Source of the DNA: Escherichia phage Bp7
Sequence record: NC_019500.1
Strand: one strand, 5' to 3'
DNA length: 64,000 nucleotides
The first letter of the stretch is position 1. Every line of letters begins with the position of its first letter. The translations under genes and the position numbers were made by a program. Shown one piece after another: positions 6,306 through 44,025 of the stretch. The notes under the pieces were generated by a model. It made no database searches, was not told the DNA's origin, and saw nothing but the letters and a program-made list of their open reading frames with translations.

Positions 6306-6358
6306 GTATACATCTCCATTAATCATGATATTATAGACCTATCAACTAATGGAGATGA
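6306..6358 (+). promoter_or_regulatory. PeSL-like early promoter inside an 11-bp perfect inverted repeat that includes the SD of the downstream ORF
   Basis: -35 GTATAC 6306-6311, -10 TATTAT 6329-6334; arms catctccatta (6311-6321) and taatggagatg (6348-6358). Confidence 0.5.
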
Positions 6359-6360
6359 TT

Positions 6361-6480
6361 ATGAAAAACTTACTTAAAGCAATTTGGAACATGTTTGTGT
6401 TGTTAATGGTATTGAGCATTTTCCCAATCGTTTTTATGATTGACCATGTACGTGTATTCTTTAACTTCTGAGGAAAATAT
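6361..6480 (+). CDS. small hydrophobic membrane peptide (39 aa)
   Basis: MKNLLKAIWNMFVLLMVLSIFPIVFMIDHVRVFFNF; SD ggag 3 nt upstream. Confidence 0.35.
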
Positions 6481-9432: not shown

Positions 9433-9461
9433 GTTTACATCTGCTTTAAACATGATACTAT
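9433..9461 (+). promoter_or_regulatory. T4-type early promoter, member of the near-identical cassette gtttacatctgctttaaacatgatactatagacctatcaa
   Basis: GTTTAC 9433-9438, TACTAT 9456-9461, 17-bp spacer. Confidence 0.6.
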
Positions 9462-9481
9462 AGACCTATCAAAACAACAGA

Positions 9482-9756: not shown

Positions 9757-9785
9757 GTTTACTTCTGCTTTAAACATGATACTAT
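9757..9785 (+). promoter_or_regulatory. T4-type early promoter (second copy of the cassette) preceded by hairpin gagctctt/aagagctc
   Basis: GTTTAC 9757-9762, TACTAT 9780-9785. Confidence 0.6.
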
Positions 9786-9820
9786 AGACCTATCAAATAA
9801 ATGGTTATCGGAGATACAAA

Positions 9821-27114: not shown

Positions 27115-27143
27115 GTTTACAATGCCTTTAAACATGATACTAT
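27115..27143 (+). promoter_or_regulatory. T4-type early promoter (cassette variant ggtttacaatgcctttaaacatgatactatagacc)
   Basis: GTTTAC 27115-27120, TACTAT 27138-27143. Confidence 0.6.
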
Positions 27144-27173
27144 AGACCTTATCAACTACATGAGGAAATAAAA

Positions 27174-27800: not shown

Positions 27801-27829
27801 GTTTACATCTGCTTTAAACATGATACTAT
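27801..27829 (+). promoter_or_regulatory. T4-type early promoter (third near-identical cassette copy)
   Basis: GTTTAC 27801-27806, TACTAT 27824-27829; 40/40 identical to 9433-9472. Confidence 0.6.
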
Positions 27830-27861
27830 AGACCTATCAACTAATGAGTGAGGAAAATAAA

Positions 27862-28144: not shown

Positions 28145-29830
<1,686 letters not shown>

Positions 29831-35272: not shown

Positions 35273-36421
35273 ATGATTGAATTATATGATAACTTGATGG
35301 CCCTGGTTAAAAACTCGACTAAATCTAAGTTCTTCTTTAAAGACTTTCAGAGTGCGCTAGGAGTCAACTATCGCATCTTTAGTTATAACTATGCCTCGTA
35401 CAGTGATTGGTTGGAAGACGGCGCGCTAGAGGGCCGAGGCATTATGTTTGAAATGGACGAGAACGGTCCAGTACGTATTGCTGCTCGTCCTATGCAAAAG
35501 TTCTTTAACCTTGACGAAAACCCTCTGACCATCGGTCTAGATTTGTCACCAGAAAATATTGACCTCGTAATGGCTAAGGAAGATGGTTCTCTGATTTCTA
35601 CATTCATGGACCGACAGTATCTTTCTGTTAAATCTAAAGGCTCTATCCATTCATCAATGGTGCATGATTCTTTACGGTTCCTTCGTCTCCCTGAGAACGA
35701 GGCTTTTGCCGCACGTCTAGAAGAAATCACCAAAGCTGGGTATACCTGCAACCTTGAATATGTAGCACCTACCAACCGTATCGTTCTGGCTTACCAAGAA
35801 ACAAACCTCATCCTGTTGAACGTTCGTAATAATGAAACAGGTGAATATATTCCGTATGCTGAATTGTTTAAAGATGGTGCCCTGCGTAAGCATTTGGTTG
35901 AAAGCTATGACCTCGCTGAAGGTGATTTCGTAGAAAACATCCGTAAACAAGAAGGTATTGAAGGTTTCATCTTTGTACTGAAAGATGGTACGTTCTTTAA
36001 ACTCAAAACCGCCTGGTACAGTGCACTGCACCATACCAAAGATTCCATTAACAATAACGAACGTTTGTTTGAAGTTGTAGTGGCTGGTGGAACTGATGAC
36101 CTTCGTGGATTGTTCAGTACAGATTCGTTTGCTATCGAGAAAATCGATGCCTTTGAACGTATCCATTTAGATTACTTAGAACAATCATTAGCCTTGTTAG
36201 AAGCAGCGTACTCCCAACTTAAGGGTCGCGACCGTAAGGACTACGCCGTTACTGGTCAACTAATCCTTAAGGACTTTCCAGGGTTGTTCTCTATTCTTAT
36301 GCAGGCGTACGTAGGCGGCATTAATTATGATACGGTCATGGACCAGATTAACTCTGTGTTCTTGAAAAACCATAAAGCCCAAATCCCTGAAAAATATTTG
36401 AAAGAAATTGTGGTAGAGTAG
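35273..36421 (+). CDS. rnlA: RNA ligase 1
   Basis: 382 aa; YRIFSYNYASYSDW, GIMFEMD, RPM.KFFNL.ENP, FVAPTNRIVLAYQE, LLNVRNNETGEYI match T4 Rnl1 (gp63). Confidence 0.9.
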   Translation: MIELYDNLMALVKNSTKSKFFFKDFQSALGVNYRIFSYNYASYSDWLEDGALEGRGIMFEMDENGPVRIAARPMQKFFNLDENPLTIGLDLSPENIDLVMAKEDGSLISTFMDRQYLSVKSKGSIHSSMVHDSLRFLRLPENEAFAARLEEITKAGYTCNLEYVAPTNRIVLAYQETNLILLNVRNNETGEYIPYAELFKDGALRKHLVESYDLAEGDFVENIRKQEGIEGFIFVLKDGTFFKLKTAWYSALHHTKDSINNNERLFEVVVAGGTDDLRGLFSTDSFAIEKIDAFERIHLDYLEQSLALLEAAYSQLKGRDRKDYAVTGQLILKDFPGLFSILMQAYVGGINYDTVMDQINSVFLKNHKAQIPEKYLKEIVVE

Positions 36422-36473
36422 TTTACATCTCCTCATGATGTGTTAGTATAGACTTACCAACTAATGAGGAGAA
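36421..36473 (+). promoter_or_regulatory. PeSL-like early promoter with 9-bp inverted repeat tctcctcat/atgaggaga that includes the alc SD
   Basis: GTTTAC 36421-36426, TAGTAT 36444-36449; arms 36428-36436 and 36465-36473. Confidence 0.55.
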
Positions 36474-36479
36474 AACAAA

Positions 36480-36980
36480 ATGAATATGCAAATGATTACT
36501 AACGAAATGGTTGTTAAGGCTTTTGGTGACTCTACCGACGGTATCCAAGTTTTTAAAGGTTCTCGTGCAGTAGGTTACCTGACCGATCTTCGTGTTACTT
36601 TAGCTAAAAATGCTAAAAAGAAAATCAAGCAAAAAGAATACTCTACCCGTTACGCTGAAGAAAAGCGTGAAGCCATGCCCGAAGCTGTTAACTCTATGGT
36701 TGAGTTTCTCCGAAACAACCTTTCCAAGTATGATGCTGAGGTGTTCATTAATATTAGCCAACCTAATGTTAAAATCTCAGGCATCACTTTCTATTTGATT
36801 TGTGACCCATTAAGCGACAAGTTTAATCGCCTTGGCATTTCAAGTCCTTACCATACCGCTGAAGAATTGTGTTTTATGTTCGAAACGTACAAAATTCAGT
36901 GCGAAAATCCTAAAACGGTTCTTATTAATTCCCTGTCACGTGATGACATCATCGAGATTATTACCAAATGTCTAAATTAA
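36480..36980 (+). CDS. alc: probable Alc (transcription-unfolding protein); assignment by synteny and size only
   Basis: 166 aa (T4 Alc 167 aa) between rnlA and the spanin pair. Confidence 0.45.
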   Translation: MNMQMITNEMVVKAFGDSTDGIQVFKGSRAVGYLTDLRVTLAKNAKKKIKQKEYSTRYAEEKREAMPEAVNSMVEFLRNNLSKYDAEVFINISQPNVKISGITFYLICDPLSDKFNRLGISSPYHTAEELCFMFETYKIQCENPKTVLINSLSRDDIIEIITKCLN

Positions 36981-42378: not shown

Positions 42379-42642
42379 ATTAAATCGAGGAGCCGTCGAA
42401 CTGTTTGATTAATGATTTGCGAATCATTATAGTTTTAAGACCCCAACAGTTTTACGGTGTACCTCTTGAATGTATTTTGTACTATCACGCGTCAGAAAAA
42501 GGTTATCTGTCTAAGCCGTGGTCGGTATGATGACGAGGTTTATGGTTATCCTGTCGTTAAATATCCGAAACCTATGTTCCCCTTGAGGGCTTGCGCAGGC
42601 AACGCCAATAAGTCCTGCATCCTAATTTAAGAGATTTAAAAA

Positions 42643-42804
42643 TGGCTAAGAAAGAAGTTAAAGTAGTTGACGGTACCTCTAAACGCGCTGGTTACAAGCG
42701 TGCGTCCAACAAGCGTATCAATCAGGTAGTTGATAAGCTTCAAGCTCGTGCTCGTGCAGTATTGCGTGCAGATGCTGCTTGCTTTGGTAAGCCTCAGGCA
42801 TAAG
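42643..42804 (+). CDS. small basic protein (53 aa)
   Basis: ATG 42643 after aagagatttaaaa; followed directly by a strong terminator. Confidence 0.35.
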
Positions 42805-42808
42805 TTAT

Positions 42809-42833
42809 GGGACTCTTCGGAGTCCCATTTTTG
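42809..42833 (+). terminator. rho-independent terminator (GGGACUC-UUCG-GAGUCCC then T-run)
   Basis: perfect 7-bp stem, UUCG loop, TTTTTG. Confidence 0.65.
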
Positions 42834-42854
42834 TTTCTAAATCTTTAAAAAAGG

Positions 42855-42883
42855 GTGTACATCTCCGGTAGGCATGATACTAT
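42855..42883 (+). promoter_or_regulatory. T4-type early promoter (-35 GTGTAC, -10 TACTAT) followed by duplicated 45-nt leader
   Basis: GTGTAC 42855-42860, TACTAT 42878-42883. Confidence 0.5.
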
Positions 42884-42924
42884 AGACATGTACCAAATAA
42901 TACGAAAACAAACTGGAGAATAAA

Positions 42925-43257
42925 ATGAAAACTGTAAATCTGAATGCATCTGTTAAAGCTAAATGTTTCAACGGTGAATATCAAGAAACCATGTGGGTCC
43001 TGACTGCAGTTGAAGGTGATATCATCGAAGTTGAAACAACTGAAGGTATGGGTACTGATTTTACATTCACCATCGAGCTTCACAACTTCTTTACAGGTTG
43101 GATTTATGAACTGAAAACTGTAATTACTGGTCGTATTGAAGAAAACAAAAATGGTGAATTCTATTATGTTAATGCCCGTACACGTGCTGAACGTCTGATT
43201 GCTCAGATGAAAAAAGTTGGTAAACTTGATATGAAAAATTGGAATGTTGTGAAATAA
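42925..43257 (+). CDS. hypothetical protein (110 aa)
   Basis: ATG after SD ggagaa in duplicated leader. Confidence 0.5.
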   Translation: MKTVNLNASVKAKCFNGEYQETMWVLTAVEGDIIEVETTEGMGTDFTFTIELHNFFTGWIYELKTVITGRIEENKNGEFYYVNARTRAERLIAQMKKVGKLDMKNWNVVK

Positions 43258-43260
43258 ATG

Positions 43261-43300
43261 TTTTACTTTGGTACAGGTTGTGTTATTATAGACCTGTACC
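43261..43300 (+). promoter_or_regulatory. PeSL-like early promoter with 8-bp perfect inverted repeat ggtacagg/cctgtacc around the -10
   Basis: -35 TTTTAC 43261-43266, -10 TATTAT 43284-43289; arms 43270-43277 and 43293-43300. Confidence 0.5.
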
Positions 43301-43330
43301 AAATAATACGAAAACAAACTGGAGAATAAA

Positions 43331-43696
43331 ATGAACTACATCAACTTCGAACGTAAATATGTTTCTAACGGTATCGCTGGTTCTTCTGAAGTTATTTGCC
43401 TGTGGAAACACAACAACGGCGCGGTGTGCGAAATCGAACAGTGCATGACTCCTAACTACGTTTATATGCGCTTTGAAAATGGTATTACGGTTTCAATCAC
43501 AATGGAAGGTTCTACTTTTAAAATCGCTTTAGATGATGATTTCCGTCAACGTGATTTAGGTACCCATCCTTGCTGGAACGGTTCTAATCGTAAGCTTCTG
43601 GTTAAAACCTGGATTCGTCACATCCTGAGCAACCGAGCTAAACCTGAACACCTGGAAGCAATCTTTGATGTAGTTCTGAATGAATTCGATATCTAA
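43331..43696 (+). CDS. hypothetical protein (121 aa)
   Basis: ATG after second copy of the duplicated leader. Confidence 0.5.
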   Translation: MNYINFERKYVSNGIAGSSEVICLWKHNNGAVCEIEQCMTPNYVYMRFENGITVSITMEGSTFKIALDDDFRQRDLGTHPCWNGSNRKLLVKTWIRHILSNRAKPEHLEAIFDVVLNEFDI

Positions 43697-43737
43697 TCTT
43701 AAAAATGGAGGCTTCGGCCTCCTTTGAGGAAAATATT

Positions 43738-44025
43738 ATGTTTATGACCACTTATTTTGATACTCGTAAAAATTTCTGTGAAGTTGTTTTCTCTAAAGCA
43801 GGTAAAGATGTTCCTGCCGACAAACAACCTACTCGTGAATCTATTAAGGCTTATGCCGATGTTGTATGCCCGGTAGAATTCCGTACTGTTAATGGTCGTG
43901 ATACCCTAGCAATCACTAAGCTAAACCATGATATCAATATCGACCCAAGTGTCGCCCGTGAAGTCAATACCTCTGACATCTATGGTGGTAATGTTAAATC
44001 ACATGGCTTTCAGATGAGGTTCTAA
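43738..44025 (+). CDS. hypothetical protein (95 aa)
   Basis: ATG 43738 after SD gagga; the 43705 ATG lies in the upstream hairpin and is rejected. Confidence 0.45.
   Translation: MFMTTYFDTRKNFCEVVFSKAGKDVPADKQPTRESIKAYADVVCPVEFRTVNGRDTLAITKLNHDINIDPSVAREVNTSDIYGGNVKSHGFQMRF

Follow-up and report, generated by a model that had tools for sequence, protein, structure and literature searches.

Adjacent PeSL-type early promoter cassettes share a duplicated leader at genes 30.8 and 30.7 of a JS98-like Dhakavirus

The closest described relatives of the locus considered here are the 'promoter-early stem-loop' (PeSL) cassettes of T4-type phages, which consist of an AT-rich region, a stem-loop, an early promoter, an SD and a start codon (Arbiol 2010, PMC2839356; Comeau 2014, PMC4122927). 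They are known from RB49/phi1 (PMC2839356) and from T4/PST and KVP40/nt-1 (PMC4122927), where they are intergenic among small early ORFs in variable regions and are present in many copies per genome. PeSLs serve as crossover points at which genes are deleted or swapped; genes 30.8 and 30.7 are named neither in the 2010 text nor in the portions of the 2014 text consulted. The stem-loop can lie 5′ of the −35 box, between the boxes, over the −35 or the −10, or just 3′ of the −10 (PMC2839356). A further comparison is offered by the lambdoid morons, which carry their own promoter and terminator and are likewise autonomous one-gene units between other genes (PMC2839356). The morons lack conserved bounding repeats that mediate exchange (PMC2839356), however, whereas here the flanking cassettes are themselves the apparent crossover sites.

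The window examined (the whole 64-kb stretch of DNA) comes from a JS98-like Dhakavirus of the T4 family. Two adjacent ORFs to which the first-pass annotation had drawn attention are genes 30.8 and 30.7, and both were correctly placed there according to the ORF list. The genes and the repeated segments that precede two of them are as follows:

42642–42803, + strand: gene 30.9 ORF, 53 aa, upstream of the first cassette (ORF list; JS98 annotation of the 98%-identical locus)
42875–42929, + strand: repeat copy 1 (exact core 42889–42929), with −10 box, predicted start at ~42890, 35-nt A-rich 5′UTR, SD GGAG and ATGAA of 30.8
42925–43257, + strand: gene 30.8, 110 aa, type I allele, between the two repeat copies (Pfam PF06019, E = 6e-48)
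43281–43335, + strand: repeat copy 2 (exact core 43295–43335), with −10 box, predicted start at ~43296, identical 5′UTR, SD and ATGAA of 30.7
43331–43696, + strand: gene 30.7, 121 aa (Pfam PF06919, E = 2.9e-52)

A repeat search of the window found one direct-repeat family, 55 nt long with 52 of 55 positions identical (95%), whose two copies start 406 nt apart. Each copy runs from a T4-type early promoter −10 box through the whole predicted 5′UTR and the SD to ATGAA. The exact 41-nt core (TGTACC...ATGAA) occurs precisely twice in the window, even with three mismatches allowed, and has matches in none of 100 dinucleotide-preserving shuffles. The duplicated leader reported in the first-pass annotation is therefore confirmed, with an actual extent of 55 nt. 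The string singled out at the time, 49 nt with one N, lies at 42881–42929 and 43287–43335; of the coordinates given for it, the first pair was off by at most 1 nt and the second was shifted by 1–2 nt.

Both copies are embedded in larger units that have the PeSL build, from an A/T-rich stretch, stem-loop and sigma70-type early promoter to an SD and ATG at the 3′ end. The elements upstream of and within the repeats are:

42807–42836, + strand: terminator-like hairpin ATGGGACTC-TTCG-GAGTCCCAT followed by a T-run, the stem-loop of the 30.8 cassette, 5′ of the −35 (terminator scan, fold)
42839–42883, + strand: predicted early promoter P30.8, with A/T-rich AAATCTTTAAAAAA, −35 GTGTAC (42855–42860), 17-nt spacer with TGn and −10 TACTAT (42878–42883)
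43261–43289, + strand: predicted early promoter P30.7, preceded by A/T-rich AAATAAATG, with −35 (G)TTTTAC, 17-nt spacer with TGn and −10 TATTAT (43284–43289)
43268–43302, + strand: hairpin enclosing the 30.7 −10 box, with arms TTGGTACAGG (43268–43277) and CCTGTACCAA (43293–43302), 10 bp perfect

The cassettes occupy the intervals between 30.9 and 30.8 and between 30.8 and 30.7, among small early ORFs in a region that varies across genera (SP18 has an inserted 30.6A, HX01 has a 615-nt gene in place of 30.6, and 30.8 exists as two alleles). In both, a sigma70-like early promoter with TGn and a GTTTAC-like −35 follows the A/T-rich stretch. P30.8 fits the T4/PST PeSL promoter consensus TTTACW..TAYWAT as well as the UP/−35/TGn/−10 pattern of T4 early promoters (sequence, family scan), and the promoter scan at P30.7 returned TTTACT-16-TATTAT with TG; P30.7 is conserved in Dhaka-, Tequatro-, Mosig- and Gaprivervirus. 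From these motifs, both promoters are predicted to be active and to start at the positions listed above. At the 3′ end, each cassette has GGAG, 6 nt and ATG (42915–42927 and 43321–43333), and the segment from SD to AUG is predicted to be largely open in promoter-proximal transcripts, with mean P(unpaired) values of 0.75 and 0.67 (RNA fold prediction) and an unstructured 5′UTR for 30.8 (0.75).

The stem-loops of the two cassettes are both unusually stable for their composition. The 30.8 hairpin has nine pairs plus TTTTTGTTT (terminator scan), and its stem-loop (42807–42828) folds at −15.7 kcal/mol (z = −3.97), with none of 200 shuffles as stable. The 30.7 hairpin (z = −4.19; none of 200 shuffles folds as well) belongs to the PeSL subclass in which the stem-loop overlaps the −10, and can form only in transcripts initiated upstream of P30.7. 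Among 13 distinct sequences of this hairpin, one of 19 arm positions is variable, by a change that keeps a G.U pair, as against five of nine loop positions outside the −10 hexamer; distant orthologous 30.7 loci have other arm sequences in the same place. The first-pass annotation had placed the second leader copy inside an 8-bp inverted repeat. The inverted repeat is real and longer than was thought, but only its right arm is in the repeat copy, the left arm lying in the promoter spacer upstream. An Rfam scan of 42400–43800 gave two sub-threshold hits at chance level (19.9 bits where the gathering score is 55, and 18.7 bits where it is 50), and a known structured RNA family in the leader was rejected. 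Compared with the published PeSLs, this example is in the 30.8/30.7 locus of a JS98-like Dhakavirus, it is the leader half, not the promoter half, that the pair has in common, and the partner stem-loops differ in place, being upstream and terminator-like at 30.8 but −10-enclosing at 30.7.

The two cassettes are members of a larger family, with 16 such cassettes on the + strand of the window, several of which share ~40 nt of identical promoter. The pair at 42855/43261 has the highest pairwise local score among the 16 (46), followed by 9433/27801 (40), 9757/27801 (38) and 9433/9757 (38). A leader present in front of many genes had been named in advance as the mark of a merely common promoter-leader type, and this holds for half of the element: its ends (−10/+1 and SD–ATG) are found 16 times in the window, but the ~27-nt middle is restricted there to genes 30.8 and 30.7. 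Judged by their sequence, the repeat copies are the 3′ half to two-thirds of two adjacent PeSL-type cassettes. The finding is thus real but ordinary, a known kind of repeated regulatory module in front of two neighbouring small early genes.

Comparison across genera indicates which of the two leaders is the older. The gp30.7 protein is at least 89% identical in amino acid sequence across four genera (a search of viral contigs found no relatives below 90% identity, and distant orthologues were taken from tblastn of the phage collection), whereas gp30.8 is 78–80% identical to that of T4/RB14 but 38–40% identical to the Mosigvirus/Gaprivervirus allele. At 30.7, the leader element CCTGTACC has a hairpin partner, and the P30.7 arms and leader start are conserved in the four genera. 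The CNTGTACC copy at 30.8 is without an 8–10-bp partner arm of the kind seen at 30.7; by eye, there is only a 6-bp GTACAT/ATGTAC match, which is missing in ESCO10 and HX01. In addition, the 30.8 leaders of T4 and Gaprivervirus differ from that of Dhakavirus. Because of this hairpin partner, the four-genus conservation at 30.7 and the other 30.8 leaders in T4 and Gaprivervirus, the 30.7 leader appears to be the source. These comparisons support an ancestral 30.7 cassette whose leader was probably copied onto 30.8 in Dhakavirus, and in part in Mosigvirus.

The locus is mosaic, in that 30.8 promoter type and ORF allele assort independently among genera, and two genomes have junctions within the cassettes. 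JM10 is collinear with HX01 up to the start of 30.8 and then jumps to 30.7, leaving no 30.8 and a single chimeric cassette with a Mosigvirus promoter and a Dhaka-type leader; this mixture means that an intramolecular deletion by itself is too simple a history. The deletion junction is present as one contiguous piece in JM10 alone of the 30 best-matching records listed, and deletions of 30.8 appear to be rarely fixed. In IME341, a Dhakavirus, the leader pair of the window is retained (49 nt exact) but encloses a Gaprivervirus-type 30.8 allele, with junctions in ACTGGAGAATAAAATGAAA and GTTTACTTTGGTACAGGTT. JM10 and IME341 are natural deletion and replacement recombinants, respectively; crossovers between −10 and ATG, and a flanked ORF that one of two close relatives has lost or exchanged, have likewise been described for PeSLs. 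The proposal of recombination between cassettes, made when the repeat was first noticed, is supported by these junctions and by the copying of the 30.7-native leader to 30.8. In Jiaodavirus phages, a version of the leader peculiar to them recurs 2–3 times per genome; in JD18 it precedes an unrelated gene. The two copies are usually identical to one another (nine Dhakavirus genomes and IMG/VR loci), but private differences in one copy are found in WG01/QL01/IME281, UGJNEcP3, VR5 and ESCO10, the last two having a different 3′ end and SD region at 30.7. Strictly concerted evolution is contradicted by such single changes, and one or a few past events, without ongoing gene conversion, suffice.

We consider it likely, with a probability of roughly 0.8, that these are two PeSL-type cassettes made alike by recombination or gene conversion, with the 30.7 leader copied onto 30.8. 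Each cassette would give one small early gene a strong, independent early promoter of the sigma70 type and an A-rich leader free of structure, with the GGAG SD set in a RegB-type context, and the stem-loop may insulate the gene from upstream transcription or attenuate it. The starting point would have been cassettes already alike in short blocks, the TAYTATAG... −10/+1 region and GGAGAATAAAATGAA. Homologous recombination or gene conversion between them would have generated the leader identity, with transfer from 30.7 to 30.8 in the Dhakavirus lineage. Gene 30.8 would then be flanked by direct repeats of 41–55 nt, which the phage recombination system could use to excise, delete or replace it; from the repeat spacing, excision in the source phage is expected to yield a 406-bp circle.

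The leader SDs also resemble the RegB/S1 sites of early mRNAs, for which a strong cleavage consensus, GG*AGRAYARAA, has been described (Uzan and Miller 2010, PMC3014915). The regB gene is widespread in T4-related phages, JS98 being unnamed in that account (PMC3014915); any regB of the source phage would lie outside the window. Two sites are in the repeats:

42915–42925, + strand: GGAGAATAAAA, full match to the strong RegB/S1 consensus, overlapping the SD of 30.8 (pattern search)
43321–43331, + strand: GGAGAATAAAA, RegB/S1 consensus match, overlapping the SD of 30.7 (pattern search)

As at the published sites (PMC3014915), the GGAG SD is in an A-rich context in the initiation region of an early gene and the GGA is predicted to be unpaired, and RegB may cleave at these two putative positions. 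The match covers only 11 nt of the 41–55-nt repeat, however, and cleavage here is a prediction from the sequence.

These sites bear on a different explanation, namely that selection holds the leaders identical because a single trans-acting regulator, whether RegA, RegB or some other RNA-binding factor, uses both as its operator. The two genes would then be under joint post-transcriptional control, and the identity would reflect function rather than recombination history. Both copies of GGAGAATAAAA fit the RegB/S1 consensus at every position, the window contains four such sites against 0.41 expected (pattern search), and GGAGAATAAAATGAA is kept at both genes in four genera. RegA sites are A/U-rich and unstructured, lie over or just 5′ of the AUG with 5′ poly(A), and follow no strict consensus (SELEX, aaAAUUGUUAUGUAA; PMC3014915). 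The AAUAAAAUGAA segment next to the AUG is A/U-rich and predicted to be unstructured, as at described RegA sites, but the RegA criteria are too loose to discriminate. Against an operator, the 30.7 leader body 5′ of the SD differs between genera despite gp30.7 identity of ~90% or more and is therefore not a conserved operator, and VR5 and ESCO10 have another SD region altogether, so that an operator covering all 41 nt is contradicted. Only the last ~11 nt of the leader, GGAGAATAAAA, are conserved across genera, and the conserved 11–15 nt are found at other early genes too (28135 and 5939). Since other early genes have the RegB/S1 site too, it does not account for the duplication, and an exact match of 41 nt speaks for common descent rather than convergence. 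We regard a shared operator as unlikely: the suggestion, also made in the first-pass annotation, survives weakly in the fit of GGAGAATAAAA to RegB/S1, not RegA, and fails as the reason for the 41-nt identity.

A dedicated site-specific recombinase, acting in an integron-like manner with the hairpin as recognition element in place of general homologous recombination, is less probable still. The promoter hairpins are conserved in position but not in sequence, the IME341 and JM10 junctions lie in or beside conserved blocks, and the PeSL authors leave a targeted recombinase or helper protein open (PMC2839356). All junctions seen, however, fall within shared stretches of ~19 nt or more, as homologous exchange predicts, and the reported crossover points of mini-circles, the circular products excised when neighbouring PeSLs recombine, are variable in position (PMC2839356/PMC4122927). 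Tandem gene duplication, with 30.8 and 30.7 as diverged paralogues whose upstream regions are still alike, might be suggested by neighbouring ORFs of similar size behind the same upstream sequence. We find this highly improbable, since sequences and profiles alike already contradict it: BLASTP of gp30.8 against gp30.7 gives no similarity (E = 25), their Pfam families differ with no cross-hit at E < 0.01, and profile–profile comparison (hhalign) gives a probability of 0.2%, as expected from the original impression of two unrelated proteins. T4 and Gaprivervirus, moreover, carry both genes but with different 30.8 leaders. A chance A/T-rich match or an assembly artefact, for which only the A-rich composition of the leader speaks, is already refuted by the shuffles and by recurrence of the pair in many independently sequenced Dhakavirus genomes.

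Beyond a role as terminators or attenuators, the cassette stem-loops could conceivably couple each small early gene's translation or stability to transcription from its own promoter, an idea we put forward tentatively. In T4, the initiation regions of genes e, soc, 49 and I-TevI are masked by RNA structure in read-through transcripts (PMC3014915). As in those genes, the promoter here is in or beside a helix arm, such that transcripts from upstream can fold and promoter-proximal ones cannot. The known cases have late rather than early promoters, however, and the 30.7 hairpin in the window is off the SD. At 30.7 loci, the 3′ arm is at +1 or on the SD, and between orthologous loci the arm sequences are completely different (GGTACAGG/CCTGTACC in the T4 type). 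Hairpin lengths are 13–14 bp in EcS1, 14–15 bp in R3_1 and 11 bp in the Karam/Gelderland type, where the 3′ arm is the SD itself, as in the masked T4 regions. The idea that promoter spacers generally mask the SD was rejected: permuting cognate against non-cognate spacer–SD pairs across all 16 cassettes gave a marginal result (p about 0.03–0.07), 30.8 offers only a weak helix of 8 bp, one of them G.U (z = −1.6), and the SD is half open on read-through, P(unpaired) at 30.7 in the window being 0.75 even in read-through RNA. Separately, the cassettes at 6306 and 36421 in the window have 9–11-bp spacer-to-SD complementarity. If a link to own-promoter use were general, each junction would silence or process the read-through RNA arriving from the cassette before it, and the resulting autonomous expression of each cassette would explain their free shuffling.

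The scientific gain is modest, since both the class and the mechanism were published in 2010 and 2014. For annotation, the locus is a warning that identical leaders in front of unrelated T4-like early genes are cassette repeats and not evidence for a special regulator. For phage engineering, direct repeats of 41–55 nt predict spontaneous loss of 30.8 and provide natural landing sites where small genes could be exchanged. With this locus, Dhakavirus, a group used in phage therapy work, gains a clean and well-delimited example of modular exchange through PeSLs, with three allelic states of 30.8 in public genomes, resident, replaced (IME341) and deleted (JM10), and junctions resolved to ~19-nt blocks.

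Repeat search of the window, inspected across 42500–44000, returned one strong direct-repeat family, a 55-nt sequence whose two copies are 95% identical, lie 406 nt apart from start to start and form the leaders of genes 30.8 and 30.7. An exact 41-mer within it, TGTACCAAATAATACGAAAACAAACTGGAGAATAAAATGAA, occurs twice in the 64-kb window, still twice when three mismatches are permitted, and gave no match in 100 dinucleotide-preserving shuffles. The duplicated leader reported in the first-pass annotation is confirmed as a 55-nt repeat with a 41-nt exact core, and its two ORFs appear as given in the ORF list; the second pair of leader coordinates was displaced by 1–2 nt, and the inverted repeat is present but measures 10 rather than 8 bp.

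Features of the 30.8–30.7 locus (plus-strand coordinates)
42807–42836, terminator-like hairpin and T-run upstream of copy 1 (terminator scan; fold z = −3.97)
Copy 1 promoter (predicted): AAATCTTTAAAAAA, GTGTAC, 17-nt spacer with terminal TGA, TACTAT
42875–42929, repeat copy 1
42925–43257, 30.8 ORF
43268–43277 and 43293–43302, inverted repeat arms TTGGTACAGG and CCTGTACCAA, 10 bp
Copy 2 promoter (predicted): (G)TTTTAC, 17-nt spacer with terminal TGT, TATTAT
43281–43335, repeat copy 2
43331–43696, 30.7 ORF

Each copy starts within the −10 hexamer of a predicted T4-type early promoter (sequence inspection and promoter scan). Both copies conform to the T4 early promoter description (UP/−35/TGn/−10), and both promoters match TTTACW..TAYWAT, the T4/PST consensus given in passages of PMC4122927 for promoter-early stem-loop (PeSL) cassettes. 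Transcription would start near 42890 and 43296, ~7 nt past the −10, and the 41-nt core would then be essentially the entire 5′ UTR plus ATGAA. Folded from these putative starts, both leaders are nearly unstructured, with mean P(unpaired) across SD to AUG predicted at 0.75 and 0.67. The terminator scan finds no terminator upstream of copy 2, whose −10 box sits within the 10-bp hairpin (fold z = −4.19; 0/200 shuffles as stable).

Scanning the window for GTTTAC-like −35 elements and TAYWAT −10 elements followed by SD and ATG identifies 16 such cassettes on its plus strand, with the general consensus GTTTACATCTGCTTTAAACATGATACTATAGACCTATCAACTAATGAGGAG..ATG. As to whether the leader is simply ubiquitous, its left end TGATACTATAGAC and right end GGAGAATAAAATG are of this common type, the latter with five matches at ≤1 mismatch in the window versus 0.12 expected, but its ~27-nt middle occurs in the window only at 30.8 and 30.7. 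These two give the top pairwise local alignment score among the 16 cassettes (46), ahead of 9433/27801 (40), 9757/27801 (38) and 9433/9757 (38), pairs that, unlike 30.8/30.7, have ~40 nt in common in the promoter half. A near-identical ~40-nt block, GTTTACATCTGCTTTAAACATGATACTATAGACCTATCAA, lies in four early promoters (9433–9475, 9757–9800, 27115–27160 and 27801–27845) that precede different ORFs at spacings of 0.3 to 18 kb; these direct repeats could also be recombination substrates.

The surrounding 1.2 kb is 98–99.5% identical to the JS98-group coliphages IME281, QL01 and JS98 (Dhakavirus, T4 family), where the ORFs are annotated 30.9, 30.8, 30.7 and 30.6 and the locus is flanked by rIII and DNA ligase. 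The two proteins are indeed dissimilar, as had been claimed: gp30.8 belongs to PF06019 (E = 6e-48) and gp30.7 to PF06919 (E = 2.9e-52), BLASTP finds no similarity (E = 25) and hhalign, on small family alignments, gives no profile–profile similarity (probability 0.2%). Paralogy is ruled out by these three comparisons.

Further variation at the cassette level is evident around the locus. SP18 (L003 1655–2005) carries an additional gene, 30.6A, between 30.9 and 30.8, and in HX01 (L004 3395–4009) and PECP20 a 615-nt ORF replaces the 288-nt 30.6 of other phages. The ~260-nt rIII–30.9 interval (42380–42640), where JS98 annotates no gene (L001 2182–2273), contains short recurring 23-nt blocks; JM10 and JS98 share two of them at 100% identity, with differing offsets. 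Between 30.7 and 30.6 (43700–43740), a GC-rich hairpin, GGAGGCTTCGGCCTCC (43707–43722), lies immediately 5′ of the 30.6 SD; 30.6 is probably co-transcribed with 30.7, because no promoter is present in this interval. The public annotation of ESCO10 (L011) looks shifted or wrong here, labelling the rIII homologue thymidine kinase, gp31 endoribonuclease and gp30.8 'putative ABC transporter ATP-binding protein'.

Strong RegB/S1 sites have the consensus GG*AGRAYARAA and lie within early-gene translation initiation regions (PMC3014915). GGAGAATAAAA agrees with this consensus at every position at both 30.8 and 30.7, and RegB-mediated early shut-off is therefore probably common to the two genes. The window holds four consensus matches versus 0.41 expected, three at the cassette start codons 5949, 42925 and 43331 and a fourth ending at 28145. 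It is nevertheless improbable that the 41-nt identity constitutes a shared operator for a trans-acting regulator: the RegB match spans 11 nt, is common to other early genes and leaves the 41-nt identity unexplained. Rfam returns no RNA family match at the leader region. RegA sites are described solely as A/U-rich, unstructured and AUG-proximal (PMC3014915), and the leader agrees loosely with this description, whose criteria are not diagnostic. The first-pass annotation had proposed either cassette recombination or a translational operator; a dedicated operator is not supported, whereas recombination between cassettes is, by comparison across genera and by the phages JM10 and IME341.

We compared the upstream regions of 30.8 and 30.7 in 11 genomes from four genera, later adding 14 IMG/VR loci. 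Dhaka-, Tequatro-, Mosig- and Gaprivervirus all retain the 30.7 cassette, GTTTAC-TTTGGTACAGG-N15-CCTGTACC; past CCTGTACC the leader body varies by genus, even though gp30.7 identity is 89% or higher. For the 30.8 cassette, these genera show three promoter/leader types, one in T4/RB14, one in Gaprivervirus and a promoter common to Dhaka- and Mosigvirus with the 3′ end TACTATAGACNTGTACCA. Only in Dhakavirus does the complete 30.7 leader stand upstream of 30.8. In the 30.8 leader, CNTGTACC lacks the 8–10-bp partner arm that it has at 30.7; visual inspection shows just a 6-bp GTACAT/ATGTAC match, which is missing from ESCO10 and HX01. Because the 30.7 cassette is conserved, the 30.8 types vary and the partner arm is missing, the simplest interpretation is copying of the 30.7 leader onto the 30.8 cassette. 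This event would have been seeded by blocks already common to both, the −10 region and GGAGAATAAAATGAA.

At 30.8, promoter type assorts independently of the ORF allele: Dhaka and T4 carry the type I ORF, Mosig and Gapriver the type II ORF (38–40% amino acid identity to type I), and the Dhaka promoter is Mosig-like. Within Dhakavirus the two copies are mostly identical, with sporadic private changes, and VR5/ESCO10 have a different SD region at 30.7; ongoing conversion between the copies is not demonstrated by these changes. A separate version of the leader, TACTATAGACCTGTACCACCCAAACAGATA..GGAGAATAAAATG, is present in phages of Jiaodavirus (Klebsiella) at 2–3 places per genome (JD18, L005 2440–2552 and 2770–2845; PKO111, L036 830–900), upstream of an unrelated 71-aa ORF in JD18 and of the 30.7 homologue in PKO111. 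The next JD18 cassette has a −10-enclosing hairpin, GGAGCT/AGCTCC.

Two phages are natural recombinants. JM10 (Mosigvirus) is collinear with HX01 across the 30.8 promoter to ATGAA and then continues directly into 30.7; tblastn finds no 30.8 in this phage. Its only cassette here is chimeric: a Dhaka-type leader is fused at the −10 to the −35 and spacer of Mosig P30.8. Among the best 30 matching records this junction is contiguous only in JM10; the others match in two pieces over 785 nt, a span that includes 30.8. In IME341 (Dhakavirus), the Dhaka promoter and leader stand at both flanks, 49 nt exactly identical, and enclose a type II ORF allele that most resembles the Gaprivervirus type. Alignment places its junctions in ACTGGAGAATAAAATGAAA and GTTTACTTTGGTACAGGTT, both common to the parental types. 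Deletion and replacement of a bracketed ORF with junctions inside the cassettes, as read from these sequences, are outcomes predicted by the PeSL model.

The promoter-embedded hairpin yields a side result, its covariation. Across 13 distinct T4-type 30.7 promoter sequences, 1/19 arm positions varies (C to T, retaining a G.U pair), as against 5/9 loop positions outside the −10 hexamer (one-sided p ~0.007, hypergeometric on these counts). Distant 30.7 orthologues retain a hairpin at the same position with arms unrelated in sequence.

Hairpins at distant 30.7 orthologues
EcS1 (L032 845–885), GCTGATTGAGTGT / ACACTCAATCAGC, 13–14 bp, fold z −4.68
R3_1 (L033 845–885), TTGGTGTAGGAGTA / TACTCTTACACCAA, 14–15 bp, fold z −4.59
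vB_VIPECLUMC02 (Karamvirus) and STML-198 (Gelderlandvirus), CTCCGTTGTAT / ATACAACGGAG, 3′ arm = SD, 11 bp, z −7.34 and −4.14

Ursula has the same arms as the last pair, by eye only. In all genera examined a hairpin encloses the promoter of the 30.7 orthologue (including comparison loci L035, L037 and L034, about 835–900), with 10-bp arms at 43268–43302 in the window, where the predicted fold leaves the 30.7 SD open. Unrelated arms in the same place amount to covariation-like evidence that an RNA structure, formed in read-through transcripts only, is conserved, and support a structural role in RNA arriving from upstream, in agreement with the literature proposal that PeSL stem-loops act as attenuators. 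In several cassettes the promoter spacer just past the −35 shows complementarity to the cassette's own SD region; in the window, permutation of cognate against non-cognate pairs gives p ~0.03–0.07.

Spacer/SD pairings
6306 (6306–6365), CATCTCCATTA/TAATGGAGATG, 11 bp
36421 (36421–36485), TCTCCTCAT/ATGAGGAGA, 9 bp
30.8 (42861–42868 with 42912–42919), TCTCCGGT/ACTGGAGA, 8 bp, one G.U
Upstream of T4 30.8 (L007), TCCTTTGT/ACAAAGGA, 8 bp
ESCO10, TTCTCCAGT/ACTGGAGAA, 9 bp

PeSLs, as described in PMC2839356 and in passages of PMC4122927, combine an A/T-rich stretch and a stem-loop with a sigma70-like early promoter and a 3′ SD and ATG; they recur through the variable regions of T4-type phages and serve as crossover points to insert, delete or replace the ORFs they flank. 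The 30.8/30.7 cassettes are PeSLs. The segment in which PeSL crossovers are described, from the −10 to the ATG, is the one duplicated here, and the stem-loop positions of both copies are among the five catalogued in PMC2839356. Genes 30.7 and 30.8 are absent from the text of that paper and from the passages of PMC4122927 consulted. The pair is a new, well-documented instance of an already published class, and its main added value lies in the natural deletion and replacement variants.
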